A stretch of DNA of 64,000 bases from Candidatus Hydrogenedentota bacterium (lineage in GTDB: Bacteria > Hydrogenedentota > Hydrogenedentia > Hydrogenedentales > JAGMZX01): contig JAKQEQ010000037.1 in assembly GCA_029556545.1 (NCBI GenBank), forward strand, positions 10,315 to 74,314, read 5' to 3'. A program made the position numbers and the translations under genes. Below the pieces are notes generated by a model. The model was not told the DNA's origin. It did not search any database and was given only the letters and a program-made list of their open reading frames with translations. Positions 1,791-30,469 of this stretch are shown here, piece by piece; positions within the stretch are counted from its first letter, which is position 1, and every line of letters begins with the position of its first letter.

Positions 1791-1791
1791 G

Positions 1792-2310: not shown

Positions 2311-2312
2311 GG

Positions 2313-10448: not shown

Positions 10449-12122
10449 ATGAGTAATCGAGCGAAACTAGAGTTGACCTGGATTGGCAAGGAGAACCGGC
10501 CCAAGTTGGAGCCACGCATTCTCTTGGAGGATCCGGAGAAGTCGTATCACGCCAAGAGCCGGGTGTCGGAGAGCGATATCTTCGACAATATGCTGATCTT
10601 CGGGGACAATCTGCTGGCGTTGAAGGCGTTGGAGCAGGAGTTCACAGGGAAGGTCAAGTGTATCTATATTGATCCGCCTTACAACACGGGCTCCGCTTTC
10701 ACCCACTATGATGACGGCGTTGAGCACTCACTGTGGTTATCTTTGATGAGGGACAGACTTGAGCTCTTGCGGGTTCTCCTGTCCGAAAACGGAACGATCT
10801 GGATTTCCATCGACGACAATGAGTGTCACTATCTCAAAGTGTTGTTGGATGAGATCTTCGGCAGACCGAATTTCGTCGCAACGGTGATTTGGCAAAAGAT
10901 GTTCTCGCCCAAAAGTACCGCACGCCACCTGTCAGACATGCACGATCACGTCTTGCTCTACGCGAAGAATAAGGATAAGTTTGAGCGCAATCTGCTTCCG
11001 AGGAGCGCAGAGCACAACAAGATGTACAAGAATCCAGATGATGATCCAAGGGGGCCATGGACTTCTGGCGACCTTTCTGCGCGCAATCCTTACAGCGCAG
11101 GCATTTATCCCATTACGGCCCCATCGGGAAGGATAATCTCTGGTCCACCCAAAGGGATGTACTGGCGTGTTTCAAAGGAGAAGTTCCGGGAGATGGATCG
11201 GGACAACCGGATTTGGTGGGGGGCGAAAGGGGACAATCAGCCACGAATCAAGAGGTTCCTATCCGAAGTGATGGAAGGCATTGTTCCGCAAACGATCTGG
11301 TTCCATGAAGAGGTGGGAAACACTCAGGAAGCAAAGAAAGAGGTAATGGCCGCTGTGCCATCTGAGGCGGAGGTGTTTCAGACGCCAAAACCGGAAAGGC
11401 TAATAAAACGCGTTCTTGACATCAGCACAAAACCAGGGGATCTTGTGCTTGATTCCTTTGCCGGGACTGGCACTTTGGGCGCGGTGGCGCACAAGATGGG
11501 CCGCCGCTGGATTATGGTGGAGTTGGGCGAGCATTGCCACACGCACATCATCCCGCGGTTGAAGAAGGTTATCGACGGCGAAGATCCTGGCGGCATTACG
11601 AAGGCGGTGAGTTGGGGTGGTGGGGGTGGGTTCCGCTACTACCGGCTCGCGCCGTCGCTCCTGGAGCGGGACAAGTTCGGGAACTGGGTGATCAGCAAGA
11701 AATTCAACGCGGCGATGCTGGCGGAAGCGGTGTGCAAACTCGAAGGGTTCACCTATGCGCCAAGCGATGCGGTGTATTGGCAGCAGGGACACTCAACCGA
11801 GACGGATTTCATCTACGTGACAACGCAAACGCTGACGCGGGATATGATGCAGCAATTGAGCGACGAGGTCGGCGAGAAGCGGTCGTTGCTGGTGTATTGT
11901 GGCGCGTTCCGGGGAAAGGGCGACGCATTCCCGAATCTGACGGTCAAGAAGATACCCAAGGCCGTGCTCAGGAAATGCGAATGGGGCCGCGACGACTACA
12001 GCCTCGAAATCCGCGATCTGCCCCCACCCACCCCACCACCCCAACCCGAAGGCACACCTCCTGTTTTGAGAGGCAAGGAGCGCCGTAAGAAAGAACAAGA
12101 AGGCCAGGGAGAGTTGTTTTGA
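10449..12122 (+). CDS. mod: Type III R-M adenine DNA methyltransferase (Mod)
   Basis: IYIDPPYNTG (motif IV) before DSFAGTGT (motif I), i.e. beta-class order; adjacent to Res. Confidence 0.92.
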   Translation: MSNRAKLELTWIGKENRPKLEPRILLEDPEKSYHAKSRVSESDIFDNMLIFGDNLLALKALEQEFTGKVKCIYIDPPYNTGSAFTHYDDGVEHSLWLSLMRDRLELLRVLLSENGTIWISIDDNECHYLKVLLDEIFGRPNFVATVIWQKMFSPKSTARHLSDMHDHVLLYAKNKDKFERNLLPRSAEHNKMYKNPDDDPRGPWTSGDLSARNPYSAGIYPITAPSGRIISGPPKGMYWRVSKEKFREMDRDNRIWWGAKGDNQPRIKRFLSEVMEGIVPQTIWFHEEVGNTQEAKKEVMAAVPSEAEVFQTPKPERLIKRVLDISTKPGDLVLDSFAGTGTLGAVAHKMGRRWIMVELGEHCHTHIIPRLKKVIDGEDPGGITKAVSWGGGGGFRYYRLAPSLLERDKFGNWVISKKFNAAMLAEAVCKLEGFTYAPSDAVYWQQGHSTETDFIYVTTQTLTRDMMQQLSDEVGEKRSLLVYCGAFRGKGDAFPNLTVKKIPKAVLRKCEWGRDDYSLEIRDLPPPTPPPQPEGTPPVLRGKERRKKEQEGQGELF

Positions 12123-12590: not shown

Positions 12591-15257
12591 GTGAACCCCC
12601 AAGTAAACGCCATCAGCAACCGCCTGAGCCTGCGTCCGCCGCAGCGCGAGGCGCTGGAGATTTTGGACCGCGTGTGCGAGATCATCTCGCTGGAGAAGGG
12701 GGCGGACCTTGATCAGGCGCTGAGCGTCATCCGGTCCGAATTCCCTACGGTCGCCGATTTCGAGCGGGAGTTTCCCTCGCTGTGCTTCGCACTGGCGACG
12801 GGCGTGGGCAAGACGCGGCTCATGGGGGCCTTCATCAGCTACCTGTTCCGCGTCGAAAACATCCGGCATTTCTTCGTGCTGGCCCCTAACCTGACCATCT
12901 ACAGCAAGCTGATCGCGGACTTCACGCCGAACACGCCAAAGTACGTACTCCAAGGCATCTCGGAATTCGCCACCACCCCGCCCGTGATTATCACGGGCGA
13001 CACCTACGAGCAAGGCATCGGCGTGCGCGAGGGCTACCTGTTCGAGGCGGGCGAGGTGCACATCAACATCTTCAACATCTCGAAGATCAACTCCGAGGTG
13101 CGCGGCGGCAGCGCCCCGCGCATCAAGCGCCTGAGCGAGTACATCGGCGAGAGCTATTTCGAGTACCTGTCCAAGCTGGATGACCTGGTGCTGATCATGG
13201 ACGAGTCGCATCGGTATCGCGCGACCGCCGGGGTGCGCGCCATCAACGAACTTCGACCTATTATCGGCCTGGAACTGACGGCCACGCCCCAGATCGAACG
13301 CGGCGGCGGGGCGGACCCGTTCAAGAACGTCATCTACAGCTATCCGCTGTCGTGCGCCCTGGACGACGGCTTCGTCAAGGAGCCCGCCGTGGCCACGCGC
13401 GAGAATTTCATCGCGGACAATTACGACCGCGACGGCCTGGAGCGGCTGAAACTCGAAGACGGCGTCCGGTTCCACGAGAACACCAAGGTCGAGTTGGAGG
13501 TGTTCGCCCGCGAAAACAGCCGCCCCATCGTAAAACCGTTCATGCTGGTGGTGGCGCAGGACACGGAGCACGCCGACGCACTGGTCAAGGTCATCGAGGA
13601 TGACGCCTTCTTCGAGGGGCGGTACAGGGGGAAGGTGATCACGGTGCACTCGAACCTGCGCGGCGAGGAGAAAGACGATACCGTGCAGCAGTTGCTCTCC
13701 GTGGAGGATCCGGCCAATCCCATCGAGATCGTGGTGCACGTCAACATGCTCAAAGAGGGCTGGGACGTGACCAACCTGTACACCATCGTGCCGTTGCGCA
13801 CCGCGAACTCCCGGACGCTGGTCGAGCAGTCCATCGGGCGCGGCCTCCGCCTGCCCTACGGCAAGCGGACGGGCAATCCCGCCGTGGACCGGCTGACCAT
13901 CGTGTCGCACGACCGGTTCCAGGAAATCATCGACCACGCCAACGACCCCAACTCCATCATCCGCACGGGCATCATCATCGGGCGCGATGTCTCGGACGAA
14001 CGGACGAAGGTGGTGGTGGTGCCGCCGACCATCGAGGCGCGGATAACGGGCGATGACGCCCAGGCGGCGGGCCAGCAGGGCCTGCTGTTCGACCGGCCCG
14101 AAGAGCGCCAAATCGCCCGCACCGTGCTCAACATCATCCGCGACTACGAGCGGCTGCCGCGCTCGGGCGATCTGTTGTCGCCCGAAGTGCAGAAGGAGTT
14201 GGTGGAGAAGACGGCGGCGGTGGTGACGCCGAAGCAGTACGAGATCGAGGGCACGTCCGAAAGGGTGGACCTGGTCAGGGTCGTTCGCGAGACGGCGGCG
14301 CAGTACGTGGCGATGTCGATCGACATCCCGCGGATCGTGGTGGTGCCGACCGGCGAGGTGACCGGCGGTTTCCAGGACTTCGATTTGGACACCTCCAACG
14401 TGCATCTCCAGCCGGTGGCCAACGACCTCATTTCGCAGGGGTTGCATAAAGGCCAGCGCTACCACCTGATCAGCGGCGACGGCATCGTGCCGGAGGAGCG
14501 GCTGGAAGACTACCTTGTTCGCGGCCTGATCGACTTTGACGACATCAACTATGACGATAACGCGGACCTCTTGTACAAGTTGGCCGGACAGATGGTCCGG
14601 CACCTGCAATCGTATCTGAAAAGCGAAGACGACGTGCTGAACGTGCTGCAGTATCACCAGCAGACGCTGGTTAACCTTATCCATGCGCAGATGCTCGCTT
14701 ATTATAAGGAAGAGGCCACCGAGTACACGGCGCAGGTGACCAGGGGGTTCACCACCATCCGCGCGAACGCCTACAACGCGCCCGCCGATGAGCCCGTCCG
14801 TGACGTGCGCACGCCTGTGCCGGACTTGCAGAACATCCGTCGGATGCTGTTCGGCGGGTTCCGCAGGTGCCTGTATGGCGTGCAGAAATTCGATGCGGAT
14901 TCGGAGCGTCGCTTCGCCGTGATCCTGGATACCGACCGCGACGTGCAGAAGTGGTTCAAGCCGGTGCGCGGCGACTTTCAGATCCATTACGGCCATGACG
15001 ACGCGGCGTACAACCCCGACTTCGTGGTGGAGACGGATAAGGCCAAGTACATTTGCGAACCCAAGGCCGCCAACGAGATGACCGATGAGACGGTGCTGGC
15101 TAAGGCGCGGGCCGCCGCCGTGTGGTGCGAGCATGCTTCCAAGCATGCCCGCGACCATGACGGGAAGCCCTGGTCCTACCTCCTCATCCCCGACGACCAA
15201 ATCCGCGAAAACATGACGCTGCAAGGACTTGCAGCGGCGCACACCTTCCGGGCATGA
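12591..15257 (+). CDS. res: Type III restriction enzyme Res subunit (helicase + nuclease)
   Basis: ALATGVGKT, DESH, LTATP, LKEGWDV, QSIGRGLR; C-terminal YNPDFVVE...ICEPK. Confidence 0.9.
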   Translation: MNPQVNAISNRLSLRPPQREALEILDRVCEIISLEKGADLDQALSVIRSEFPTVADFEREFPSLCFALATGVGKTRLMGAFISYLFRVENIRHFFVLAPNLTIYSKLIADFTPNTPKYVLQGISEFATTPPVIITGDTYEQGIGVREGYLFEAGEVHINIFNISKINSEVRGGSAPRIKRLSEYIGESYFEYLSKLDDLVLIMDESHRYRATAGVRAINELRPIIGLELTATPQIERGGGADPFKNVIYSYPLSCALDDGFVKEPAVATRENFIADNYDRDGLERLKLEDGVRFHENTKVELEVFARENSRPIVKPFMLVVAQDTEHADALVKVIEDDAFFEGRYRGKVITVHSNLRGEEKDDTVQQLLSVEDPANPIEIVVHVNMLKEGWDVTNLYTIVPLRTANSRTLVEQSIGRGLRLPYGKRTGNPAVDRLTIVSHDRFQEIIDHANDPNSIIRTGIIIGRDVSDERTKVVVVPPTIEARITGDDAQAAGQQGLLFDRPEERQIARTVLNIIRDYERLPRSGDLLSPEVQKELVEKTAAVVTPKQYEIEGTSERVDLVRVVRETAAQYVAMSIDIPRIVVVPTGEVTGGFQDFDLDTSNVHLQPVANDLISQGLHKGQRYHLISGDGIVPEERLEDYLVRGLIDFDDINYDDNADLLYKLAGQMVRHLQSYLKSEDDVLNVLQYHQQTLVNLIHAQMLAYYKEEATEYTAQVTRGFTTIRANAYNAPADEPVRDVRTPVPDLQNIRRMLFGGFRRCLYGVQKFDADSERRFAVILDTDRDVQKWFKPVRGDFQIHYGHDDAAYNPDFVVETDKAKYICEPKAANEMTDETVLAKARAAAVWCEHASKHARDHDGKPWSYLLIPDDQIRENMTLQGLAAAHTFRA

Positions 15258-15331: not shown

Positions 15332-16186
15332 ATGATGAATAAAGTTGATTGGGAGAGCCTTGAGCGCCTCCAGAATAGAATCGAGAAGCGCATTCACAAG
15401 CGCCTTACACGGGAGAACCGTCCCGGACTTCAGGCATGGCTCTTGGACGAGTTTCGTCTTCGGGCTGAGGCAGAAACGGAACTCGATATCACGCTTGGCA
15501 AGGACGGATGGACGGAGCTTGAGGTTTTGAAGCTCTACCTTGACGAGCTTTCAACCGGGGAACGTGGTCTGCATGGCCGTCTCTTGCCCGATTTGATTAT
15601 GGCTCTTTTTGCCGAGTTGAGACTATTTGAGGCGGCCAAGGCGTTCGAAGACGGCAACAAACGCGCTGGAAGTGTTGCGATGTGCGACGCAGAGGCCGCG
15701 ATTGCGTTCGCGGAGAATCGTGCCAAAGAAAAGAAGAAAGGCCGACGCGCAAAGTATTTCCCCGGTCCCAAAGGCGTCCGCCTAGTGATTCCGACTGAGC
15801 CGGAGCGACGAGACAAATCGGTGCGGCGTGATTCGGTCAAGTGGGCAGCCCTTTATCATCTAATGACAAAAGCGTGGAATTCCGGTGGGTGCGAACTTCG
15901 GGGTCTGCGCAAACACCCGAGGGAACGGCTGAGCAAGGTCACTTCTCTTTGGGATTCGGTGCATCGCGAAATGGAGCAAACAGGAACTGATGTTCAAGAG
16001 TCTGTAGGCGATGAATTGCAGACCGTGCTGAACCGCTGGATGCGTAGCTTCGCCTGCCCGTCGCGTCTTTCTCCTTCGTATAGACTCTGGGCTTACGAAC
16101 ACCGAGACGCACTTCGAGACACATTCACGAATGAGTCCGATACAGGATTCGCCAAAGGTTCAAAGCAAGACCGTATGCGTTTCTAA
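15332..16186 (+). CDS. Hypothetical protein (284 aa)
   Basis: Long ORF with helical composition; no motif recognised. Confidence 0.65.
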   Translation: MMNKVDWESLERLQNRIEKRIHKRLTRENRPGLQAWLLDEFRLRAEAETELDITLGKDGWTELEVLKLYLDELSTGERGLHGRLLPDLIMALFAELRLFEAAKAFEDGNKRAGSVAMCDAEAAIAFAENRAKEKKKGRRAKYFPGPKGVRLVIPTEPERRDKSVRRDSVKWAALYHLMTKAWNSGGCELRGLRKHPRERLSKVTSLWDSVHREMEQTGTDVQESVGDELQTVLNRWMRSFACPSRLSPSYRLWAYEHRDALRDTFTNESDTGFAKGSKQDRMRF

Positions 16187-16478: not shown

Positions 16479-18266
16479 ATGATGAAAGACAAGTCGAAGT
16501 TAGATGTGCCGGATGAGGCCCTCATCGCTGAAATGCAGGTTGAGGTTAACGCGGAGCGTGCGGAACTGGCCAAGGGCACGGTTGAGCAAAAGTGTGATGT
16601 TACTTACGAAAGCACACCTGACGGTGTGGTCACTACTGTCTCAGACGACGTTCTCTTTGCCGATGGCCTTCCGGTGATAGAGATGGTCGACCGTGCGCGG
16701 TACGAAGTTTCTGATGATGCCCTTCGCGCGTTGGTGTTGCGGAACACGCCGCCGTGGGTGTTCACCATGCGCCGAGAACTTGTTCGCGTCGTGCAGGATG
16801 AGAATGGCGCATTCCTGGACCCATACAATATTGACAGCCTTCGAGGTGATCTTGACAGGAGCGCTCATTATACCAGGACCGCCCGCTCGCATATCGCTGT
16901 TTCCACTATCACCGAAGCTTACGTCCGCGACATCTTAGCGCGGCGGAGATTCCCTGGGTTCCCTTCGTTGCGCGGTGTCATCACCGCACCTTGCATCAGC
17001 CCTGACGGATCCCTGATTGACACGCCGGGGTATCACGAAGAGTCTGGGCTGTACTATGCGCCCGGCTCCGGACTCGAAAGCATTCGTGTCTCTGACCGTC
17101 CGACGAAAGAGGAAGTGAAGATGTCCATCGCTCTTATCAGCGAGGTCATTGTAGATTTCTGCTTTCTGGATGAAGCCAGCCGCGCAAATGCGTTTGCCCT
17201 TATCATTACACCTTTCGTACGCCCGAACATTGAAGGTCCGGTGCCGTTAGCAATCGTCTCAAGCCCGGCGCAAGGAACGGGAAAATCACTTCTAGCAGAC
17301 GTGACATCTATCCTCTATACCGGCACGCACTACAAAGGCTTGATGCTCGAATCAGAGGCCGAAACCCAGAAGCGTTTGACGACAGCGCTGATGAAAGGCC
17401 GCCCGATTATTGTCCTTGACAACCTCGTTGGCCGTGTGTCGAGCCCGAGTGTCGCGAGGGCCGTCAGCGAATCCATTTGGAGCTCTCGTCTGTTGGGGCA
17501 AAACAGGGAGGTTGAAATCCCCGTCTGGGTTACGTGGATTGGTAACGGCAACAATGTCGGCCTGAGTTCCGAGATCGTGCGCCGTTCATATCCCATTCGT
17601 CTTGATGCCAAGATGCGGCGGCCTCACACGCGCAAGGGCTTTCGTCATCCCAAACTGCTTGCTTGGGTAAAGAAGGAACGGACCAAGATCGTGTCTGCAA
17701 TTCTGACGCTGCTCAAAGCGTACTCCGTGTCTTTGGATCGGCCTCCCGTGGACGTTCCAGTCATGGGTCTGTTCGGGGAATGGGCGGAGCTTCTTGGCGG
17801 AATACTGGCCTTTGCCGAAATACCTTCGTTCTTAGGCAACCTTCAGGAATTCTGGTCGGAAGATGACGACGAAGCCCAGCAATGGGAGATTCTCTTGCTC
17901 GAAGTGTACCGAAAGTATGGTGGAAAACCGATGGAAGCGAACAAGATCGCCGCCCTGCCTGTGGAATTCTTCCCAGAGTTCCTCGCGGATTATTACGAGC
18001 GACCGTCATTTCCGGTTAGGCTCGGCAAGGCGCTGGCCAACATTAGGGACCGCGTGTTCAACGACGATGGCCTTCGTGTCGAGAAGGTGAAGTCTGTGCA
18101 TGGCAAGAGTCTGTGGCGCGTGGTTACCCCGACGGCGCATTCGGATGGGCCGAATATCGTACCGCTGCCCACCGTAGCGGCATCGCCTGCACCTCTCCCG
18201 AAAAGGTCTCAGACCAGTCAAGACGACGGAAGCCAGGTCGCCCCGAACTTGCAAGCCGGTCAATAG
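16479..18266 (+). CDS. P-loop ATPase, putative SF3-like replicative helicase of mobile elements
   Basis: Walker A SPAQGTGKS, Walker B IIVLDN, motif C-like IGNGNN, Arg-finger-like IVRRSYPIRL. Confidence 0.8.
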   Translation: MMKDKSKLDVPDEALIAEMQVEVNAERAELAKGTVEQKCDVTYESTPDGVVTTVSDDVLFADGLPVIEMVDRARYEVSDDALRALVLRNTPPWVFTMRRELVRVVQDENGAFLDPYNIDSLRGDLDRSAHYTRTARSHIAVSTITEAYVRDILARRRFPGFPSLRGVITAPCISPDGSLIDTPGYHEESGLYYAPGSGLESIRVSDRPTKEEVKMSIALISEVIVDFCFLDEASRANAFALIITPFVRPNIEGPVPLAIVSSPAQGTGKSLLADVTSILYTGTHYKGLMLESEAETQKRLTTALMKGRPIIVLDNLVGRVSSPSVARAVSESIWSSRLLGQNREVEIPVWVTWIGNGNNVGLSSEIVRRSYPIRLDAKMRRPHTRKGFRHPKLLAWVKKERTKIVSAILTLLKAYSVSLDRPPVDVPVMGLFGEWAELLGGILAFAEIPSFLGNLQEFWSEDDDEAQQWEILLLEVYRKYGGKPMEANKIAALPVEFFPEFLADYYERPSFPVRLGKALANIRDRVFNDDGLRVEKVKSVHGKSLWRVVTPTAHSDGPNIVPLPTVAASPAPLPKRSQTSQDDGSQVAPNLQAGQ

Positions 18267-18274
18267 GTGCCCCA

Positions 18275-18817
18275 ATGGATCTGCTGGATCTTCTGCTTGA
18301 GGATGGCTTCAAACCGTTGCGCAAGACGGTGAACGAATGGGCGTCGCCTTGTCCATGGTGTCCGGACCACGGGCGGGATCGGTTCATCATCAGACGGACA
18401 GGATCCGTTCTGCGGTTCTGGTGCCGTCGTTGCGGACGCCGTGGTGCGGCGTATACGTATCTCGTCGAGTTCCGGCAACTGGCTCCCGAAGCGGCACGGC
18501 GAATCCTCGGCGTGTCCGAGCAGGAAATGCGGCGGCTTCAAGGTGATTCCTCACACCCCAATTCGCGTAGCAATTCGGACGCACGCCGCCGCCCTCCACT
18601 GATTTGGCGGGAGAAGGCGTGGCTGACCGTCCTGGCGTGTGAGCGTGAGCTATGGTCCGGCTCACAGAAGACCGAGGACGTTCTTCATTGGCTCAGAGAT
18701 GAGCGCGGTCTGTCGGACGAGACAATCAAGGAATTCCGTCTCGGTTATGTGGCGCGAACTGTCTTCCGCGAGCGCGAGAGTTGGGGCCTGTCCGACTCCA
18801 GAGAGGTACGCGAATGA
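18275..18817 (+). CDS. Primase zinc-binding domain protein (N-terminal half of a DnaG/P4-alpha-like primase)
   Basis: EWASPCPWC...RDRF...FWCRRCG Cys4 finger; WLRDERGLSDETIKEFRLGY is typical of primase N-termini. Confidence 0.8.
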   Translation: MDLLDLLLEDGFKPLRKTVNEWASPCPWCPDHGRDRFIIRRTGSVLRFWCRRCGRRGAAYTYLVEFRQLAPEAARRILGVSEQEMRRLQGDSSHPNSRSNSDARRRPPLIWREKAWLTVLACERELWSGSQKTEDVLHWLRDERGLSDETIKEFRLGYVARTVFRERESWGLSDSREVRE

Positions 18818-21354
18818 GCGTGTTCGTTCTTCCAGAAGGCTTGCTGTTTCCCCACGTCGAGGCAGACGGCGTGACCGGGGAGGTCTCTGTTGGTCGCCTG
18901 AGAATACGGAAGGCCGAACAGAGCGGCTCGAAGTATCACACGGTGGCGGGTTCCAGCATGACGCCCCTCTGCATCGGCCTGCGCCGGACGTTCCCGGTTG
19001 TCGTAGTCGAATCGGATCTGGACGCGATGCTCGTGTCGCAGGAGGCTGGCGACCTTGTCGGGGTTGTCGCCTTGGGGTCCGTGACCAACCGCCCGGATGA
19101 GGAGACGTTCCGCATTCTCAGGAGGGTCCCCCTGATCATCGTGTCCTTGGATAGCGATCCTCCTGCGGCGCGGGAATCGCGGCAGTACTGGGAGCGGCAT
19201 TTCCCTCGGAGCGTACGCTGCCCCATACCGCGAAGGTTCGGGAAGGACCCCGGGGAGGCCTTCCGCAACGGCCTCGACATCCGAACGTGGGTTGTCAGCG
19301 CCCTCAAGATGGCCGATTGGTCGCTGCCAGACGAGGAAGATTTGGACGCAACGCGCCTGAGCGCCTGCGATGTGCATGGCCCATCCGATCCGCTTCCCAT
19401 TGAGGACGACAAGCCTGACGACTACGCAGCACCGGCGTGTGACGCGCCCGTTGCCGTTGCGTCCTCCGGGGAATCGCCCGCACCGGCGTGTGCGGTCGGC
19501 GAGACCCCGCCCGACGAAGGTCCAGAGGGTTCTCTTGCTCCGGTTCCGACGTTTGAGTACATCACGGACGACGACCACGCGCGGAAGGCCGTGGCGTCTC
19601 TGCTGGAGGCACCGAGCCCGTACGGGGCCGATATCGAAACAGCGAAGCACCCTGATTATGCCGGGCATCCCCAGAGCGGCCTGGACCCCCACCTCTCGCG
19701 CATCCGCTTGGTGCAGATTTGCGCAGCGGGCCTGCCCATCTATGTGTTCGACTTCTCCGGGATCGACCCGAGTATCCTAGCGCCGCTGTGGGACCGCCCG
19801 ATGGTCTTCCACAACGCCCTTTTCGATATCCGCCATATCCTTCACTCCGGCGCGAATCCGTCCAAGGTCGGCTGCACGATGCTGATGGACAATGCCCTGG
19901 CGGGGGGGATGCGCGGCCTCGCCGACCTCGCGGAGGACTATCTCGGACTCGCGGTTTCCAAGGCGGAGCAGACATCAGACTGGAATGCCCCACACCTGAC
20001 AGAAGATCAGCTTGCTTATGCCGCCCTCGATGCCTGCTTGGTTCTTCAGCTCTATCACATACTCCGGGAACGGCTCGCGGGCGAGGGGCTCGGGCGATGC
20101 TACGCGTTGATGCGCGACGCGCAGCGCGCCGTCGCCGAGACGATGCTGGCGGGGCTCGGTTTCGACGTCGCGGCGCACGCCGACGTGGTCCGCGAGTGGG
20201 AGGCTCAGCGGGACACGGCGAAGGCGAGGGTGGTCGAGGTACTTGGCCCTGACATTGACCGAAACAGCCCTACTCAGGTGGCCCGGTGGTTCGAGACCCA
20301 CCTTGACGAGGGAACGTTGCGGGAGTTGCCTCGAACGAAGACGGGGCAAATCTCCACGGCGGCGGAGTCCCTGGCCGCCATCGGTAATCATCCCGCTGTG
20401 CGTAGCTTGATCGAGTACAAAGCTGTCCAGACGCTCTTGTCCACGTTCGGCGCGCCGTACGCTCGGCATGTGAACCCCGTGACCCGCCGCCTTCACGGTG
20501 GTTTTCGTTTCTGCACCTCCACGGGTCGCATGAGATGCAAGAATCCCAATGTTCAGAACGCCCCAAGGCAGCAGTCTTTCCGCGCCCTTTTTGTGGCCAA
20601 GCCCGGTCACGTTCTTCTAAAGGCCGACTACAACCAGATGCAGCTTAGAGTGGTGGCCGAGCTTTCCCAGGACGCCACCATGCTCGAAATCTTCCGGGAG
20701 GGGCGGGACATCCACCGCCTGACCGCCGCCGCTATCACCGGCAAGATGCCGTCCGAGGTGACGAAGTCTGAGAGGAGTGCTGCCAAAAAGAGCAACTTTG
20801 GTTTCATCTTTGGAATCGGACCGAAGAGATTTCGTATGGATGTTATGGAGGAATATAGTATAGATATGACATTTGAAGAAGCAAAGCAAATTCGCAGCAT
20901 CTTCTTCAGGACCTATCCGGGCGTTGAGAGATGGCACAGGTGGCTGTCCGCACGTGCCAAGCAGACCTGGAGTGTCACGACGCCGGGCGGTCGTGTCCGC
21001 AGATTTCCGCGAAAGGGGAACCAGCCGCCCTACACGGAAGTGCTCAATACGCCCGTGCAGGGCGGCGAGGCCGAGGTCCTGCTATCGGCGCTGGCCCTGT
21101 TCCCCGAGCGGCTCGGGGGGCTGGACGCCAAACTCGTGAATGTCGTTCATGACGAGGTCCTGTTCGAGGTCGCAGAGGCGGACGTCTCCAAGGCGGTTCC
21201 CATTATCGAGGCCGTCATGGTCGAGGCCATGCAAGCCGTCTTCCCGGATTGCAGCACCAGGAATCTGGTGGATATCTCTGTAGGCAAGGACTGGGGTAAT
21301 ACGGCGAAGTACTGCGCCGACTCCGTGGCGGGCTGCGCCGGATTGGAGGGTTGA
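18814..21354 (+). CDS. Toprim primase domain fused to 3'-5' exonuclease and family A DNA polymerase
   Basis: Toprim VVVVESDLDA, LDSD, GKDPGE; Exo I ADIET, Exo II FHNALFD, Exo III YAALD; pol TGR..NPNVQN, motif A DYNQMQLR, motif B R...K..NFGFIFG, motif C VHDE. ATGA overlap with the upstream ORF. Confidence 0.9.
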   Translation: MSVFVLPEGLLFPHVEADGVTGEVSVGRLRIRKAEQSGSKYHTVAGSSMTPLCIGLRRTFPVVVVESDLDAMLVSQEAGDLVGVVALGSVTNRPDEETFRILRRVPLIIVSLDSDPPAARESRQYWERHFPRSVRCPIPRRFGKDPGEAFRNGLDIRTWVVSALKMADWSLPDEEDLDATRLSACDVHGPSDPLPIEDDKPDDYAAPACDAPVAVASSGESPAPACAVGETPPDEGPEGSLAPVPTFEYITDDDHARKAVASLLEAPSPYGADIETAKHPDYAGHPQSGLDPHLSRIRLVQICAAGLPIYVFDFSGIDPSILAPLWDRPMVFHNALFDIRHILHSGANPSKVGCTMLMDNALAGGMRGLADLAEDYLGLAVSKAEQTSDWNAPHLTEDQLAYAALDACLVLQLYHILRERLAGEGLGRCYALMRDAQRAVAETMLAGLGFDVAAHADVVREWEAQRDTAKARVVEVLGPDIDRNSPTQVARWFETHLDEGTLRELPRTKTGQISTAAESLAAIGNHPAVRSLIEYKAVQTLLSTFGAPYARHVNPVTRRLHGGFRFCTSTGRMRCKNPNVQNAPRQQSFRALFVAKPGHVLLKADYNQMQLRVVAELSQDATMLEIFREGRDIHRLTAAAITGKMPSEVTKSERSAAKKSNFGFIFGIGPKRFRMDVMEEYSIDMTFEEAKQIRSIFFRTYPGVERWHRWLSARAKQTWSVTTPGGRVRRFPRKGNQPPYTEVLNTPVQGGEAEVLLSALALFPERLGGLDAKLVNVVHDEVLFEVAEADVSKAVPIIEAVMVEAMQAVFPDCSTRNLVDISVGKDWGNTAKYCADSVAGCAGLEG

Positions 21355-21370
21355 CGTGAGAACGGAATTC
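21302..21370 (+). repeat. ~69-bp direct repeat, copy 1 (overlaps the polymerase stop)
   Basis: GACTCCGTGGyGGGCTGCGCCGGA...GTTGmCGTGAGAACGGAAT shared with 22165-22232. Confidence 0.85.
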
Positions 21371-21559
21371 AGAAGGCACAGGTTTCACTTGCGCGGCCCT
21401 CCCGCCTTCGGGGGTGGCGTTCTGCCGCGTCCGACTTGGTCCGGGCGGGGTTCGGAGGCCGCGCGAGCATGGCGTGGGCCAGCATCTGATGGGCAGAGAG
21501 AACTCCTGGCAATTGGTGCCAGGAGGAAGGCGCGAAAGGCGCATTGAGAGGAATACGAC

Positions 21560-22111
21560 ATGAGTAAGAACGGAAAGACAAACAAGTCGATTGTTCGGGA
21601 GGCCGCCGACGACAGTTCCATCTGCTACGACAACCAGGCTGCCGACGGCCTGTACGAGGTCCACGTCGACAGCACGTGGGACCAGGCGGTGCTGGAGCGG
21701 AGCGGCGAGCTCTATCACCGCGTCTGCGTCGCGATGAGTGCGCGGACGGAGGACGGCGTCGAGGTGGGACTGTTCCGCGCGTACGAGGTGCGCCGGGCAG
21801 CGGACGTGCGCGACCTGCGCTGCCTCGCGGCCCAGGTGGACCTGCCTTTGAATGACGAGCGGGACATCCCGGAGCTGATCAAGCGGCTCTGGTACGAGCG
21901 GTTCAAGGTCTTGTTGTCGACGGACGACGGCGGCCGCCGGATCGTGCACTTCATCGACAAGGCACCCGGCGACCGCGACGTTCCGGACGCACGCGACGGG
22001 GACAACATCTGGGACCATGCGTGGCATCATGAACTTCGCCGGGAGGAAGGGTTCAACAGGCACCTGAGGGAGCACGGATACGGCTACCTGCTGCCGCAGT
22101 CTGCCCGCTGA
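21560..22111 (+). CDS. Hypothetical protein (183 aa)
   Basis: GAGAGGA RBS; GC3-rich codon usage. Confidence 0.75.
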   Translation: MSKNGKTNKSIVREAADDSSICYDNQAADGLYEVHVDSTWDQAVLERSGELYHRVCVAMSARTEDGVEVGLFRAYEVRRAADVRDLRCLAAQVDLPLNDERDIPELIKRLWYERFKVLLSTDDGGRRIVHFIDKAPGDRDVPDARDGDNIWDHAWHHELRREEGFNRHLREHGYGYLLPQSAR

Positions 22112-22125
22112 ACCGCAGAAACTGT

Positions 22126-22165
22126 GGGCGATGGGGCCTGCGGAATCCCGCAGGCCCCATCGCCC
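22126..22165. repeat. Perfect 18-bp hairpin without a U-tract
   Basis: GGGCGATGGGGCCTGCGG-AATC-CCGCAGGCCCCATCGCCC. Confidence 0.8.
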
Positions 22166-22232
22166 GGCGAGTACGGCGCAGACTCCGTGGTGGGCTGCGC
22201 CGGACGAAGAAGTTGCCGTGAGAACGGAATCC
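22165..22232 (+). repeat. ~69-bp direct repeat, copy 2
   Basis: Matches 21302-21370. Confidence 0.85.
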
Positions 22233-22247
22233 GAAAAGGAGAACGAG

Positions 22248-22772
22248 ATGTCTATGCGATTGCAGATCATCAAGACTGGCGTCGCGCGGCCCGTCGCCGC
22301 GAGTTGGTATTCAAGGTGTGGGCTTACCGCGTGGAACGACTACAGCATGGGCAGGCACGACGGGGAGCTGTACATCTGCCTTAGGGGCTTCAGGGTCGGC
22401 GGCTTCGATTCGCCGGGGAAATCAACCGAGAAGTGGGTCCCCTTCTCGGTGTTCGTCCCTATTCTCGATCTGTGGCCCCGCGACAGGGCGCAGGCTTGGT
22501 CCTCGGCCATGCTGAAAGGGCTGGTCCCGCCCAACCACAACAACCAGGCCCGATTCGTAGCGGTCCTACGGGCCGAGAAACTCCTGCTCGAATGCGTGGG
22601 GGTGCCCGCGAACCCGCTCATGCCCAAGTGCGCGCGCGCCGGATACGCCAGCGTCCGCAACCGGGGCACCACTATCGCGGGCTACGTGCAGCGGATGCTC
22701 AAGAGGAGGCCGAGACGGGAGATATTCGTCGACGTGCCCGACGATATGATTTGGACGCCAAGAGGCAAGTGA
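22248..22772 (+). CDS. Hypothetical island protein; apparent paralog of 3193-3894
   Basis: AAAGGAGA RBS; LQIIKTG...YSMG...EKWV...VAVLRAEKLL. Confidence 0.7.
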   Translation: MSMRLQIIKTGVARPVAASWYSRCGLTAWNDYSMGRHDGELYICLRGFRVGGFDSPGKSTEKWVPFSVFVPILDLWPRDRAQAWSSAMLKGLVPPNHNNQARFVAVLRAEKLLLECVGVPANPLMPKCARAGYASVRNRGTTIAGYVQRMLKRRPRREIFVDVPDDMIWTPRGK

Positions 22773-22825: not shown

Positions 22826-23047
22826 TCCGGTTCGTCAACCGGACATCCATTCGTAGGCACGCGCCGTCCCCGACTGTCCTCCCACGGTCCACCGGCGTGA
22901 TGTGGCGCGGAGCGGGGTTCCGGCTTCCGGCGGGAAACGGGCGGGCGGTTCTGCGCTTCGGCGGCGGCGGGCGGGAGTGCAGGCGGGGCCTGCTTTCCCA
23001 TGGAAACGCTGGGGTTGGGCGCGGGGGCGGGCCGGGGGCGCGTCCGG
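22826..23047 (+). repeat. ~220-bp direct repeat, internal copy of the element's tRNA-proximal end
   Basis: CCCCGACTGTCCTCCCACGGTCCACCGGCGTGATGwGGCGCGGAGCGGGGTTCCGGCTTCCGG is near-identical to 30512 onward; weaker colinear similarity on both sides. Confidence 0.9.
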
Positions 23048-23058
23048 AGCCATCGAGC

Positions 23059-23094
23059 CTTTCCTCGCCCCACAAGGCGAGGCCCCATTGAAGC
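23059..23094 (+). CRISPR. Solitary CRISPR-like repeat unit (type I-G/I-U-like); no array and no cas genes
   Basis: 36-nt CTTTCCTCGCCCCACAAGGCGAGGCCCCATTGAAGC: 7-bp hairpin CCTCGCC/GGCGAGG followed by the CCCCATTGAAGC terminus typical of I-G repeats. Confidence 0.65.
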
Positions 23095-23488
23095 TCTGTC
23101 TCTGTCTCTGTGTGCGCTGCGGCAGCCCCCTGCTATGACGTGCTCATCTCGTGGCTTAGTATGTCTCACCGCGATATTTTCCACCGCGGTGATAGGTGGT
23201 ATCATCTCTCACGGACAGCCTGTGTAATCGTTGTGCCGCGATTCCGGCGTCAAGGCTTGGCTGCCCTCAATGATAATCAAAAGGAAATCATCTGCCACCT
23301 CTGCCAAACCCTCGCTCGTCCAGAACCATCTTGGGTACCTGCGACAGAGATCTCTGGATTCGCCCGTCTGAAGGCTTACCCAGGTCGGGTGCAAGCGGAA
23401 CGACGGGCAATACCACTACGAATATGACCGGATTCGCGCCATGCGGAGATCTATTGACAACTCCGAACAGACCTCTGCAGGCGATGCA

Positions 23489-26400
23489 CTACACACCGCG
23501 CCTCTCCGACACCATCGCCCGCAGGTCGATGGCATGGCTTTGGACGAAGCGGATGGTTGCAGATTCCTCGCCAAGCGTGACGGGCAACTCCAGGGCGTCG
23601 CCGATTTGGGCAAAGGCATCCCGGAGTGTGTCTCGCGCATCGTCTGATCCATGGAACACGAACTCATCGTACTTAGCCGCGCAGACCGGGCAAAGGGCAA
23701 GGTAGTTGGCGTCAAGTTCCTTCGGCAAATCGAAGGCTTCGACCTTCTCGAAGTAGTGCTTGCCGTTCTTCTCTCGGAAGGGCATCTCGTCCTGGCAGAT
23801 CTGGCAAATCAGCTGATCATCGTCATTCGTGTAGAGATCTCGAAGGTACGCTTCCACTTCGGCTTTGCCTTGCGTGCGGCTGGTTCGGACGCTTCGCTCC
23901 CGCTTCTCGTGCTGCTTATCGGGTGCGCCAGCCGCTTTCTCCTTAGCCTTTCTTTTGCGCCGTTCTGGATCAGCGGAGGTCCGCTCCGGGAACGCGGGTT
24001 GCGCTTGCCGGCTTTCCCGCCACCTCTGAAACCCCTCGGGATCCTCTTTCTTCAGCCTGGCCATTTCCTTAGCTTCTTCCAATGAATCGAAGCCGACATC
24101 TTTTATCGCAGCATCTATGTCTTGCTGCTCAGAAAGCATCACTCCTAGAGCCCTTGCCAGTTGTTCGTTTCTGTTCCAATCTTCAGGAAGGTCGTGATAG
24201 CGCACATCGTTAGGTCTGCGAAATCCACCGGTGCCGTCCGGAATCCACTCCGTGTGATGCAGCAACTGGCCTGCCTTAGAAAACTGCTCTTCGCGTTTCT
24301 GTGGAATGAAATCCTTTGTCACGTACTTGCCATATGTATTGCATTCTTCAACTGTCCCTTTGATGAAACGCAAACGGTTTAAGAGAAGCTCATTCCAGAT
24401 GTATGCGCTCTTCTCCATTGAGGCCGGGAGCTCACTCAAAGCAGTTTTCAGATGCTCGATGTCAAAATCTGGATGGAACCCATCAAGGCATCGAAGTTTG
24501 TGAGAATAGGATCGTTCAATGCGAACGAGTTGACCTGCCTTTCCGTCTCCATGGTAAGTCTTCGGGGATGATTGCACACTCATCTGGCCCAACGCAGACC
24601 CAAGAACTTCAATGACATCTTCGTGTACGAGCCACACTTTTTCATTCCCGTGCAGATAAGCCAGGAGCCCGTCGTCTTCTGGAAGCCAGACATCGCCGGG
24701 TTTCTTTAGAGCCAATTGCATGTTGCCAGCATTCTCAGCCTTTATGAATGGCGTCTTACGGCACTCCGTAAGTAAGCGCTCAGTCTTCTCCTTAGAGTCA
24801 CTTAACAGTGCGCTGACTATACGTTTGAGCTCTGCGGAAGTAGGAAAATCTACGGTTTCAAGATCGGGAGCAGTCTGATACTTTGAGAGGATGGTCCTGA
24901 TTACGCGTTCAATCCTATCAAGCTCTTGTACTCCTACTTCGCTCAGAAACGTCTTGGCTTTCTCCTTCTGACTGTCATCGCTTCCACTAGAATAGACGCC
25001 GCTCGCGACTCGGGGAAACTCGTCTTCGTGCTCAACCCCGTCGGTCGGGAAGAAGCATTCGCTTCCCTTGCGATAAGTCTCATCACTGCATCGAACAAGA
25101 GCAAGATTCTTAATAGTCGTTGTTCTTTCCGTCTTTGCATAGCTAGGAGGCGCATTCAGGTACTCATTCAACATGGAATATAGCGCTTGATGCCATCTTT
25201 CATCCTTGCTACCCATCCATTGCCCCAGGGCATCCTTGTTCAGCCTGCCCAATGCTTTCACGACTGCGGCTGTGTCCCATTGCTCAATACCGAGCATCGA
25301 CGAAAAGTTGTCCTCACGCTGATTGCGCTGGGGGGGATTGGAAGCCCATATCGGAGCAACATAGTTGTCACCCAAGAGCGTGAGCATATCGTCATCATCA
25401 ATAAGGTCCGAGAGTGCCTTCGTGCCCCGAAAGATGCCGTCGGCCGCGGCGTGGCTGCCGCGCTTCATGGGGACAAGATCCTCTTCCTTGAATTCCGTAA
25501 CTAGCCGTCCCATTAGCGGCACGTAGAACTCCGACAGATTGTCCCTGTCGTTGGGAAGTACCGCCAAGGCTCGTACGGTCAGCAAGCCTTGATCGCGGAT
25601 CGCGGACATCGATTCGGCCAGCAGCTCGGCCAGGTGATCGCGCAACACATTGTTTCCCGCACAATCGCGGACACTGTCGCGCGCGACCGTTGAGGCGAAC
25701 GGCGCATGGAGATGGAAACGCAGATTGGAGGTTTCTTTGTCCGCCGGGAAATAGATGCATACGCGTCCCGGCTCCATCGCCGCGAGTTCCCACTCGGGGG
25801 TGGCAACCGCGTCGTCGCCTTTCTTTTCCTTGGCACCCGCCTTCGCTGCAACTGGCGACAATCCGAAGGCCACGGCGATGCGGCAGAGCTTTGTTTTCTC
25901 GTCTTCCTTTTCAGACTCTTCGTCTTCAACCTCCACTTCCTTATCGAACTTCAAGAACCAGGTCGATGAAGGGGCAAGTTCGTTCGGTTGTTGGACGCGA
26001 ATCTCGTAGCGGTTGTAACCAATGTCGATTCGTTCAATGTAACCGAGCGATGAATCAGGGAGAAGATACTCTATCTTGCGGATGTGCGTAAGGAAGAGCA
26101 AGGTTGTCGCGCCGAGCGCCTTTAACAGTCTTTCGATCTCGCCCTTTGCCTGCTCCGGTCCCTTTTTGTGGTTATCAAACGGCAAGATGAATCGCGTTTG
26201 CTTGTCCCCCAATTGGCTTCTTGAACGCCCGTTCGGTTCTGGAACCACCATATCACGAATTCTGAAATGAAACTCACCAGATTCGACTTCCGGTGTTTCA
26301 GTGTAGGCAAACACGGCTTTGAATCCAACGCCGAATTGACCGATACTGGTTGCGTCATCGCGTTTGGTGCTGAACCCGATGCTGGTAATGGCATCCACGT

Positions 26401-30245: not shown

Positions 30246-30469
30246 CCTGGCTTTCGTCCTCTCATGTGGTCTCCATGATCCATTGCGGTGCTGGGCGAGG
30301 TCTCGGTTCGATTGCAGCCCTCTGGCGACGGCGAGTTCGCGTGCGCGTATTCGACTCGTGAGTACATGTTCTGTGGCCGCGTGCACTATATTCTACAGTT
30401 ACACCACATGCCTGCTCAATTTGGAACCGCTGGGTTCAACAGCAGTCTTTGCCGTTACTGATTCTCGTT

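Follow-up and report, generated by a model that had tools for sequence, protein, structure and literature searches.

Pipolins are self-replicating integrative elements that encode piPolB. In the sections of the published account that bear on this comparison (PMC11551731), they appear as direct-repeat-flanked integrative islands with tyrosine and serine recombinases and a replicative polymerase of their own, and as elements in which a small core is combined with a large, exchangeable defence cargo. The island described here is similar in all of these respects. It differs in host lineage, in having a polymerase of family A instead of family B, in apparently priming by a Toprim primase domain where the pipolin polymerase primes itself (PMC11551731), and in encoding a helicase. 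None of the island ORFs scanned matched the PolB family.

Family A polymerases are also found in comparable settings. SCC (CcPol-MP with the Cch helicase) shares with the island site-specific integration and a core of helicase and A-family polymerase beside recombinases, and its CcPol is described, in the part of the source that covers it, as a truncated PolA acting as a primase with a small OB-fold partner (PMC10061031). The island, in contrast, joins a full exonuclease-polymerase to a primase of canonical Toprim type, with a zinc-ribbon primase half as the small partner. SCC and other Bacillota PolA-SSB elements also differ from it in recombinase type and host phylum. TV-Pols and the helicase-PolA polyproteins of the pyrovirus 3173 type are A-family enzymes of mobile elements and viruses, either fused to a P-loop helicase or accompanied by one. 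Their fused partner, where these sources describe it, is a DUF927 helicase or an AEP and not a Toprim primase (PMC7689252, PMC10061031), and pyroviruses carry capsid, portal and terminase genes (PMC7689252).

Prex and certain cyanobacterial plasmids have a PolA of the same subfamily as the island enzyme, whose best solved relatives are 8jrb (E 6.7e-60) and the Prex polymerase 5dku (E 1.4e-57). This subfamily is the equivalent of the 'Hot Spring 1 / Aquificae-like' cluster outlined in PMC10201439. Like the island, Prex has a T7-gp4-type Toprim primase N-terminal to the polymerase; in the same outline its helicase is fused N-terminal to the polymerase along with the primase (PMC10201439), whereas the island has a direct primase-polymerase fusion, a free-standing SF3-fold helicase and a zinc ribbon on a chain of its own. 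A precedent for such a pairing in a replicon is the 12.2-kb circular cyanobacterial plasmid NZ_CP149438.1, on which a DnaB-like helicase protein, two recombinases and an exonuclease-PolA of the same subfamily (32% identity) are encoded; in the plasmid, the gp4-like helicase-primase and the polymerase are two genes.

Island structure and insertion site

Within the window (the whole stretch of 64,000 nucleotides analysed), the original prediction placed a tRNA-integrated element and surveyed 30 kb of it. The island is in fact 40.8 kb in size, reaches 10 kb beyond the left edge, and has its integrase in the middle, away from the tRNA; that of a related island (G008:C19) is likewise internal. It is bounded on either side by a directly repeated 58-bp sequence from the tRNA-Ser(CGA) 3' end. 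ARAGORN identified an intact tRNA-Ser(CGA) gene at 30708..30797 (minus strand), and repeat search and alignment identified its 3' 58 nt (30708-30765) as the right att repeat. The left att repeat is on contig C137:180-237, 10.1 kb beyond the window. The two copies share identical runs of 33 and 17 nt, and the central mismatches preserve, as judged by eye, the pairing of the variable-arm stem. Just outside the left copy is a native-looking hairpin trailer that resembles the trailer of another tRNA-Ser gene in the same genome.

The integrase (1..1481, minus strand, last 75 nt left of the window) is a P4-type tyrosine recombinase of 518 aa with Arm-DNA-bind_3 (Pfam, E 5.2e-16), SAM-like and catalytic domains (Phage_integrase, E 8.4e-32), and has a 68%-identical copy in G008:C19. 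Upstream of it, GC3 frame analysis revealed an operon of seven small genes (1509..4912), all on the minus strand: A0 (1509-1790), A (1792-2310), B (2313-2615), C (2717-3163), D (3193-3894), E (3891-4541) and F (4538-4912). The seven are colinear in G008:C19 at 36-71% identity, and some are also found in G008:C18 and G014. D belongs to phrog_28971 (function unknown) and E contains DUF1232; the others have no family match. As a lead only, the ESM Atlas has clusters named 'plasmid related protein' that are similar to B (score 0.94).

The conserved backbone consists of the integrase, the seven small genes, the helicase, the primase-polymerase and one trailing gene. The cargo differs from relative to relative while this backbone is kept. 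No origin, iterons or excisionase were recognised in searches of the element. Besides the integrase, the approximately 10 kb to the left of the window comprise two ParB/RepB-like genes, a serine recombinase gene, AbiE and a TOTE AEP-helicase. Counterparts of the serine recombinase, the ParB-like genes and AbiE are absent in relatives. A second element, nested or in tandem, may account for part of the island.

Replication genes

The three tightly packed genes predicted at 16479-21354 were confirmed as ORFs. The first (16479..18266, plus strand, 595 aa) has no assigned Pfam family and matches PHROG 10537 and 19930, the C-terminal parts of 'DNA polymerase/primase'. Its AlphaFold model (pLDDT 84.6) was matched by Foldseek to NrS-1, ASFV PrimPol, SaPI5 and the poxvirus D5/E5 helicases (best E 6e-8, prob 1.00), and so the expected SF3-like helicase, of replicative type, is borne out by its predicted structure. 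Residues G266, G268, D314, N358, N359, R368 and R369 are invariant among its homologues. Many of the 174 homologues have an N-terminal Prim-Pol, AEP-TOTE or DnaG-type primase domain fused. In mobile elements other than this one, members of the family usually make up the C-terminal half of a primase-helicase.

The second ORF (18275..18817, plus strand, 180 aa) starts at ATG 18275 and ends with TGA at 18815-18817, and since the polymerase ORF starts at ATG 18814, the two overlap in ATGA. It matches PHROG 47 'DNA primase' (E 4.1e-12) and, weakly, Pfam DNAG_N. Four cysteines, invariant or nearly so in an alignment of 30 sequences, bear out the Cys4 zinc finger proposed originally. The ORF aligns to the N-terminal ~180 residues of single-chain relatives, however, and we reject it as a separate primase: the alignment shows a T7-gp4/DnaG-type primase that has been split, with this ORF supplying the N-terminal half, namely the ribbon and the beginning of the catalytic core. 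Most relatives have all four parts joined in a single protein of roughly 900-1000 aa. The split is genuine and not an error, as shown by an ATGA overlap at the identical loop in L003, by two proteins that begin at the same split point (P0005, P0034) and by further Toprim-first proteins (P0020, P0223).

The third gene (18814..21354, plus strand) encodes 846 aa arranged as a Toprim domain (~1-170), an acidic Pro-rich linker (~171-262), a 3'-5' exonuclease and a family A polymerase, an architecture inferred correctly in the original prediction. The Toprim domain has no Pfam call; a profile of 32 sequences matches the T7 gp4 primase structure 1nui (E 2.6e-4), and the catalytic E and DxD fall in register. 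The 92 linker residues (171-262) include 22 D+E, 14 P and 4 K+R. Pfam detected DNA_pol_A (E 5.8e-74) and DNA_pol_A_exo1 (E 2.1e-23) and, as predicted, no 5'-nuclease family. Exonuclease motifs ExoI (DIE), ExoII (HNALFD) and ExoIII (YAALD) are present, as are the polymerase motifs A, B and C (VHDE).

Docking of the zinc-ribbon protein onto the Toprim half is predicted with an ipSAE of 0.86 (best control 0.00). The mark applied was reached by 58 of 80 solved complexes and by 2 of 110 mismatched pairs, counts that hold only roughly here because our own alignments were used as input. At least 87% of contacts were common to the docking runs, with a partner pLDDT of at least 82. As the partners are halves of a split gene, this result may mirror their likeness to single-chain primases.

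The steric-gate Glu, universally conserved in family A according to the passages of PMC3715850 on this residue, is replaced by Gln in the window polymerase (DYNQMQLR). Five of the 40 PolA sequences examined have Gln, all five of them Toprim-fused. Klenow with this substitution is characterised in the same passages as a slow mutator (PMC3715850). With the Glu missing, the enzyme might be impaired, or might have a role other than bulk replication.

Defence cargo and turnover

Defence genes make up about half of the island: a Type III restriction-modification system, two DrmD-like SNF2 proteins, TmtA, AbiE and TOTE. The first SNF2 helicase (5471..8293, plus strand, 940 aa; PADLOC DrmD E 4.8e-210; Pfam SNF2-rel_dom, Helicase_C) is followed on the same strand by a 671-aa protein with no Pfam, PADLOC or PHROG family (8427..10442), the Type III methyltransferase Mod (10449..12122; PADLOC MTase_III E 9.1e-227; Pfam N6_N4_Mtase) and the restriction enzyme Res (12591..15257; PADLOC REase_III E 3.4e-227; Pfam ResIII). 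A 284-aa protein (15332..16186, plus strand) upstream of the replication genes matched no Pfam, PADLOC, PHROGs or NCBIfam family.

Direct repeats of 61 bp (21308-21368 and 22170-22230, spacing 862 bp) enclose an ORF with no assigned function (21560-22111, 183 aa) and a perfect 18-nt hairpin (22126-22165). The repeat-flanked stretch 21308..22230 has the appearance of an insert that separates the polymerase gene from the backbone gene that follows, and these two genes adjoin each other in the Hydrogenedentes relative L002. The trailing gene is a 213-aa ORF (22131..22772, plus strand; no Pfam, PADLOC, PHROGs or NCBIfam family) whose true start is probably near 22233, and its product is 42% identical to the ORF directly 3' of the polymerase gene in L002.

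Direct repeats of ~150 bp (22868-23018 and 30512-30665) flank a defence cassette (22868..30665) with two minus-strand genes, one TmtA-like (23489-26656; PADLOC TmtA E 2.2e-60) and one HEPN-SNF2 (26649-30386; PADLOC DrmD E 8.9e-117; Pfam HEPN_Swt1). In run X1, a contig of 601 nt joins 22867 to 30512 with zero mismatches (376 and 225 nt on either side). An island variant without the cassette coexists in this run, demonstrating ongoing turnover of the island. No excised circle, empty site or excess in copy number was seen in the runs, which consist of contigs, a form of data blind to such signals.

Relatives and transfer genes

Toprim-PolA genes are present in 5 of 41 genomes of the same order, including that of the window, so that the fusion is supported by homologues. 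A helicase gene lies immediately upstream in six of the seven loci with upstream DNA: it is of the same family as the 595-aa helicase in the window, G008:C19 and G038, DUF3987 in G033 and G014, and D5-type in L007, with none recognised in G008:C18. G008:C19 has the integrase and the seven small genes in conserved order, and both it and G014 have att-like tRNA-Ser remnants. The polymerase and helicase genes of G014 are broken, indicating that such elements decay. No record among 50,697 deposited phages and 72,556 deposited plasmids covers at least 80% of the 846-aa protein, and among the 80 IMG/VR loci listed none matches past the Toprim domain; homologues of the fusion are thus not found in ordinary prophages.

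Virion and conjugation genes, originally noted as absent, were not found among the island ORFs scanned (Pfam, PHROGs), including those in the 10 kb beyond the window's left edge. Six marker families for such genes had no match on the element-bearing contigs of five genomes. In the Pfam scan of two related islands, the matches listed are 25 of 52 families, and transfer genes could be among the remainder.

Origin and function of the island

The trio probably, if by no means certainly, serves to replicate an integrative mobile element of 40.8 kb that is inserted in the 3' end of tRNA-Ser(CGA). The integrase would excise a circle by att x att recombination and the SF3-fold helicase would open an origin. 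Termination-reinitiation at ATGA would yield the zinc-ribbon protein, which would dock on Toprim and rebuild a T7-gp4-type primase; primers would then be passed in cis to the proofreading PolA, tethered by the flexible acidic linker that they would cross, and this polymerase would copy the element. The ParB-like genes and serine recombinase, not conserved in relatives, might serve partition or resolution of the episome.

A helper-dependent satellite of the P4/PICI type, with a backbone of ~12-13 kb, induction by a helper phage, use of helper capsids and defence genes in hotspots, is an unlikely alternative that differs mainly in transfer route and trigger. The P4 alpha protein combines primase and SF3 helicase activities, the pair encoded here, and P4-like satellites share with the island a P4-type integrase (with an arm-binding domain in the island), integration at a tRNA and hotspot defence genes. 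IMG/VR has 211 stretches with the same zinc-ribbon-Toprim primase type, many of the 80 contigs listed measure only 4-14 kb, an integrase matched at 27 of 138 loci fetched, and terminase genes are present on other contigs of the host genome (C114, C119, C66). However, no ORF scanned matched PHROGs for capsid-size redirection, packaging, head or tail, or another P4 marker; the island is about four times larger than P4-like satellites, far above typical satellite size; and the closed genome G014, whose element copy is decayed, has no match to the two terminase, capsid and portal families tried. P4 is not known to have a DNA polymerase.

It is improbable that the trio is instead a defence, counter-defence or repair device, for example one that makes aberrant or RNA-containing DNA on invading templates, with the Gln gate as an adaptation. 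The restriction of this Gln to Toprim-fused enzymes among the sequences examined would fit, as would the position amid defence systems and the TOTE AEP-helicase, a conflict system by its Pfam name that is 76% identical in G008:C19. Yet the trio moves with the integrase and backbone genes while defence cargo varies between relatives, the helicase is swapped among three families with gene order conserved, and the small plasmid NZ_CP149438.1 has a replication module built from the same activities. Equally improbable is an immobile remnant (a decayed plasmid or prophage, or tandem islands at a tRNA hotspot, with inactive replication genes), which the internal integrase, the left 10 kb without counterpart, the broken genes of G014 and the several partial and duplicated tRNA-Ser copies in G008:C19 could suggest, but against which stand the intact backbone ORFs with catalytic motifs kept apart from the clade-wide Gln, the internal integrase shared with G008:C19 and the cassette-less variant.

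For the integrative element, we infer autonomous replication; it may depend on a helper for transfer. A PolA-based, pipolin-like element, as originally proposed, is supported, since none of the counter-findings named with the proposal turned up, but it is less unprecedented than it seemed, as precedents exist in pipolins, SCC CcPol with its helicase, Prex, TV-Pols and cyanobacterial plasmids. With its insertion in tRNA-Ser, its own helicase and primase-polymerase and its neighbouring anti-phage systems, the island looks like the PolA counterpart of self-replicating defence islands.

Replication genes of the island

Three plus-strand ORFs take up the segment 16479-21354. The first (16479-18266) encodes a helicase of 595 aa, the second (ATG 18275 to TGA 18815-18817, the best start choice) a zinc-ribbon protein of 180 aa, and the third (ATG 18814 to 21354) a Toprim-exonuclease-polymerase protein of 846 aa, whose start overlaps the preceding stop as ATGA. 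The fusion of Toprim, exonuclease and PolA domains proposed in the original prediction is backed by relatives, and an identical 846-aa protein is already on record in the protein collection searched. Pfam places DNA_pol_A (PF00476, E 5.8e-74) at residues 470-839 of the longer frame and recognizes a DNA_pol_A_exo1 3'-5' exonuclease (PF01612, E 2.1e-23); no 5'-nuclease domain was detected in the 846-aa protein.

Family A polymerases are recognized by a motif A similar to DYSQIELR with its catalytic Asp, a motif B of the form RxxAKxxNFGxxY/F and the HDE of motif C, and DnaQ-like exonucleases by Exo I (DxE), Exo II (NxxxD) and Exo III (YxxxD). In the 846-aa protein these are DYNQMQLR, RSAAKKSNFGFIF and VHDE, with the Asp, Arg, Lys and HDE residues all there and Gln in place of the steric-gate Glu, and the protein is a family A polymerase. 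The exonuclease motifs DIET (274), HNALFD (334) and YAALD (403) are those of a DnaQ-like proofreading domain. By sequence, the nearest solved structures are 8jrb (E 6.7e-60) and then the polymerase of apicoplast Prex (5dku, E 1.4e-57), with Taq and Klenow behind. PMC10201439 places Prex in a 'Hot Spring 1 / Aquificae-like' cluster; the fusions known from that cluster are, in Apicomplexa, a Toprim primase with a helicase and, in some bacteria, an AEP primase-polymerase. The linker between primase and exonuclease in the island protein is weakly conserved and comprises 92 residues, of which 22 are acidic, 14 Pro and 4 basic.

The helicase has no sequence match in Pfam or PDB. It matches the C-terminal parts of PHROGs annotated as DNA polymerase/primase, and many of its 174 relatives carry an N-terminal Prim-Pol, AEP-TOTE, RepB-primase or DnaG-type domain. 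SF3 helicases are hexameric 3'-5' unwinding enzymes with an AAA+-like core, Walker A and B motifs, a motif C Asn and an Arg finger. When the protein was modeled with AlphaFold from 33 sequences (pLDDT 84.6), the fold resembled the helicase portions of NrS-1 polymerase, ASFV PrimPol, the SaPI5 primase-helicase and poxvirus D5/E5, though at low TM-scores (0.3-0.5). GTGKS, D314, N358/N359 and R368/R369 are conserved. The modeled fold points to a stand-alone form of the helicase module found in primase-helicases of mobile elements.

A primase split over two polypeptides

Primases of the T7 gp4/DnaG type consist of a Cys4 zinc ribbon followed by a catalytic core of Toprim fold with a conserved Glu and DxD. 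In alignments, the first 170 residues of the 846-aa protein, which have no Pfam match, correspond to the catalytic half of Zn-ribbon/Toprim primases. A profile built from 32 sequences of the domain matches the T7 gp4 primase (1nui, E 2.6e-4), and the catalytic Glu and DxD line up in this match; E66, D113 and D115 are invariant or nearly so, and relatives bear PF08273, PF01807 and Toprim_2. The ribbon is conserved in the neighboring ORF (C26, C29, C50, C53), and the domains of a gp4/DnaG-type primase are all found in the window, spread over two polypeptides. This bears out the Cys4 ribbon that had been predicted for the small ORF and, by alignment with single-chain relatives, revises its role from a primase zinc finger in its own right to half of a primase.

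Single-chain relatives (proteins P0028, P0026, P0030, P0037 and others) run from the Cys4 ribbon through a helical part to '...RESWGLP...', '...LPxGLxIP...' and the Toprim core. In the window the zinc-ribbon ORF stops just past 'RESWGLS' and the Toprim ORF opens with 'MSVFVLPEGLLFP'. An identical ATGA overlap is present in L003, a locus from a MAG labelled Candidatus Hydrogenedentes, and homologs P0005 and P0034 begin at the same break point. Because the break recurs in all three, the split is not an assembly error but is conserved in the clade.

In a model of the complex, the C-terminal part of the ribbon protein is docked on the first 30 Toprim residues with an ipSAE of 0.86, vs 0.00 for the highest-scoring of three controls; the docking runs had at least 87% of contacts in common, and partner pLDDT was at least 82. 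The ipSAE mark was calibrated at 58 of 80 solved complexes and 2 of 110 mismatched pairs, counts that are only rough here because our own alignments were supplied. As the partners are halves of one fold, the docking pass may just mirror their likeness to single-chain primases.

In L003 (1-3210) the split zinc-ribbon ORF, the ATGA and the Toprim domain run into the 829-aa P0034, whose C-terminal part is no polymerase and has a weak Pox_D5 match (E 0.009). The Toprim half is therefore joined to differing partners.

Island boundaries and gene content

Islands integrated at tRNA genes are flanked by copies of the tRNA 3' part in direct repeat and contain a site-specific integrase. Here the 3' 58 nt of an intact tRNA-Ser(CGA) gene (30708-30797) form the right repeat, the left copy lies at positions 180-237 of contig C137, on which the window spans 10315-74314, and a tyrosine integrase is found inside the 40.8-kb insert. 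The copies share identical runs of 33 and 17 nt, and the mismatches between these runs leave the variable-arm stem paired, as judged by eye. Within the window the 58-bp repeat has no second match (0 of 100 shuffles). A hairpin trailer outside the left copy resembles that of another tRNA-Ser gene of the same genome, as would be expected of the displaced original tRNA end. To the right of the tRNA, a sequence of 25-35 nt (~30900-30936) has copies of 94-100% identity on dozens of contigs in this genome and in G001, a genome of the same genus, and looks like a dispersed REP-like repeat.

From the left end, the island holds a 328-aa ORF, a TOTE AEP-helicase gene, AbiEii and AbiEi, a large serine recombinase, two ParB/RepB-like genes, the tyrosine integrase and seven small conserved genes on the minus strand (1509-4912). 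These are followed by a DrmD-like SNF2 gene, a 671-aa ORF, Type III Mod and Res, a 284-aa ORF, the replication genes, ORFs of 183 aa and 213 aa, a TmtA-like gene, a HEPN-SNF2 gene and the tRNA. The named defence genes, together with the 671-aa ORF between DrmD and Mod, make up ~20 of the 40.8 kb. Eleven ORFs have no family in Pfam, PADLOC, PHROGs or NCBIfam: five of the small conserved genes (A0, A, B, C and F) and the ORFs of 328, 671, 284, 183, 213 and 168 aa. No convincing iterons or tandem repeats were found near the replication genes.

Two segments are bounded by direct repeats. The TmtA/HEPN-SNF2 pair lies between repeats of ~150 bp (22868-23018 and 30512-30665, by alignment), and a 601-nt contig from an activated-sludge run joins both repeats without the cassette and without a mismatch. 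Repeats of 61 bp (21308-22230, 862 bp apart) enclose the 183-aa ORF and a perfect 18-nt hairpin; this insert separates the polymerase gene from the backbone gene that follows it, whereas in a related locus, L002, the two genes are adjacent.

The four public runs were used as Logan contigs, in which depth is no gauge of copy number. In run X1 the island (~5-9) and its flank (~6-8) are similar in depth, values that are contig-based and hence no copy-number measure. In runs X4-X6 coverage falls on the right flank (31005-40999), with next to nothing on the island, a contig gap that carries no evidence. Loose ends at 30702-30708 vary among runs, with poor agreement (0.55-0.63); as none matches the contig's left flank, they establish no empty site. 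Joints that rest on 20-26 letters at one side (e.g. 21081 to 30708) were set aside as probably due to chance or to other organisms.

Relatives and distribution

Toprim and PolA genes occur together in 5 of 41 genomes of the same order, counting that of the window: the others are G008 (two copies, on contigs C18 and C19), G033, G038 and G014, a closed genome in which the polymerase gene is broken. In the four intact relatives, ribbon, Toprim, exonuclease and polymerase form a single ORF of 926-996 aa. Upstream DNA is at hand for 7 loci, and in 6 of them the gene immediately upstream encodes a helicase. Three helicase families are involved: the window type (window, G008:C19 and G038), DUF3987 (G033 and G014, the latter copy broken) and a D5 type in L007, a locus from a deltaproteobacterial MAG. 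On G008:C18 no upstream helicase was recognized. BLASTP found no similarity between the helicases of the window and L007, which belong to separate families.

The G008:C19 island has in common with that of the window an integrase (68% identity), the TOTE gene (76%) and the seven small genes, whose order is kept; the remaining genes differ. Remnants of 58 bp of tRNA-Ser are found in both G014 and G008:C19, and in G014 the polymerase gene lies between the remnant and an intact tRNA-Ser(CGA), 33.9 kb apart. In G001, the search for an empty site gave a flanking gene at 85% identity with no tRNA in the stretch examined, and the 179-bp left flank of the island was unmatched.

An 821-aa AEP-TOTE plus SF2-helicase protein is encoded near one end of both islands (positions 1411-3876 of L001, the locus left of the window, and G008:C19:47570-49900; 76% identity). 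This gene could belong to the backbone rather than the cargo, as a second primase of the element. The region G008:C19:46000-50400 (L159) is a tRNA-Ser hotspot with two full tRNA-Ser(CGA) genes on one strand, 0.9 kb apart, and partial copies on the opposite strand, one a 39-nt 5' half; the arrangement suggests repeated integration or inversion. In L007 (4260-9202), a tRNA-Arg(CCT), a 415-aa gene and a TGT-like gene (queuine transglycosylase family) precede the helicase and primase-PolA genes, and a search over 22 kb gave no repeat of the tRNA as long as 12 nt.

By itself, the Zn-ribbon/Toprim primase occurs often on small contigs that bear an integrase, with matches at 58 genome loci and in 211 IMG/VR stretches. 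It runs into a polymerase only in L002 and L007 among the 58 genome loci, and in none of the 80 viral loci listed. None of 50,697 deposited phage records or 72,556 plasmid records covers at least 80% of the 846-aa protein. In a library of 1.84 billion cluster representatives, Toprim precedes the polymerase in 20 of the best 150 representatives, 15 of these 20 having the ribbon in the same chain as well. A metagenome scan with the whole protein gave only 3 loci, the Toprim part being in none. A quick tree of 40 polymerases places the fused forms in two well-separated groups, and its starred branches force at least two changes. From these results, the architecture is rare yet recurrent.

The steric gate of the polymerase

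In motif A of the window protein (20590-20615, DYNQMQLR) a Gln is aligned to the Glu of SQIELR in 8jrb, and the partner Tyr is replaced by Phe. Among 40 polymerases this position is Gln in 5 (window, P0005, P0006, G008:C19 and G038), Glu in 31 and Asp in 1, the motif not being found in 3; all five Gln polymerases are fused to Toprim. PMC3715850 describes the Glu at this position (E710 in Klenow) and the Tyr that partners it as universally conserved in family A, the Glu acting as a gate against ribonucleotides, and E710Q as a mutator with a low incorporation rate. On a rather unlikely reading, taken up again below, the Gln gate could permit the polymerase to begin with, or elongate, primers that contain ribonucleotides and come from its own Toprim domain. 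Under the same reading it could instead mark a deliberately low-fidelity copier of a defence-gene reservoir.

Lifestyle of the island

The evidence best supports an integrative element that brings along a module of helicase, primase and polymerase and whose defence cargo is exchangeable. The island is integrated, has a conserved backbone and the domain content described, and carries no recognizable virion or conjugation genes; as such an element it would excise, fire from an origin, hand primers from primase to polymerase and replicate as an episome.

The main alternative is a helper-dependent, satellite-like life. P4 is marked by its Psu, Sid, Delta and Alpha proteins and a cos site; none of the PHROG matches has a head or packaging function, a search that divergent analogues would escape. 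Elsewhere in the genome of the window, Terminase_6N matches lie on contigs C114, C119 and C66, possible prophages that could act as helpers.

An integrative conjugative or mobilizable element would carry a relaxase, a coupling protein and a VirB4-type ATPase, none of which was matched in the scans of island ORFs. The relaxase family searched in the genomes, PF03432, and VirB4 (PF03135) were matched in none of the five. For the G014 and G008:C19 islands together, 76 ORFs were scanned with Pfam, the straddling ORF at G008:C19:34653-35216 being left out; 25 of the 52 matched families are listed, without ORF-by-ORF assignment, and the others could include transfer genes. The families listed for these pooled islands include T2SSE (2 ORFs), T2SSF, Secretin and a heavy-metal efflux set.

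A prophage would carry capsid, portal, terminase and tail genes, and no match to these, or to relaxase or type IV secretion genes, was found among the island ORFs scanned with Pfam and PHROGs. Virion or conjugation genes just left of the window, which would have spoken against the original prediction, are likewise absent from the scanned ORFs, which include the left part of the island. In the five genomes, no element-bearing contig matched any of six virion or conjugation marker families, the four virion families searched genome-wide being TerL_ATPase, Terminase_6N, Phage_capsid and Phage_portal. The island does not fit a pipolin: the hallmark of pipolins is a primer-independent family B polymerase (piPolB), and no scanned island ORF matched PolB in Pfam, the sole polymerase being of family A.

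Comparison with known systems and significance

As far as the available accounts go, pipolins share the lifestyle of the island with a family B instead of a family A polymerase; SCC-type elements also pair a helicase with an A-family polymerase, but there the polymerase is itself the primase; and Prex and cyanobacterial plasmids have a polymerase of the island's subfamily, either linked to a gp4-type primase-helicase or located next to one. The PolA-SSB primase CcPol-MP combines a truncated PolA with a small OB-fold partner, whereas the polymerase of the island keeps its full exonuclease domain and the small neighboring ORF is by homology a zinc ribbon, not an OB fold. In the literature surveyed, which comprised parts of main texts, neither a Toprim-PolA fusion from bacteria nor an integrative defence island built on PolA was found described.

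It is conceivable, if rather unlikely, that these islands form a distinct 'self-synthesising' integrative class built on family A, with a one-chain primase-polymerase whose steric-gate Glu is naturally Gln and whose Tyr partner is Phe. The separate zinc-ribbon subunit of the window's clade would then be a means to dose or regulate priming.

The elements now called self-replicating or self-synthesising (pipolins, casposons and polintons) have a family B polymerase as their defining feature. If confirmed, an island that recurs, integrates at tRNA genes and combines defence cargo with a helicase and a primase-PolA fusion would be their family A counterpart and a bacterial relative of the Prex-type primase-polymerase arrangement. 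For enzymology, it offers a compact, naturally tethered primase, proofreading exonuclease and polymerase, and a natural test case for the effect of Gln at the family A steric gate. The island also shows defence cassettes moving in and out of an element of this kind inside a single microbial community.
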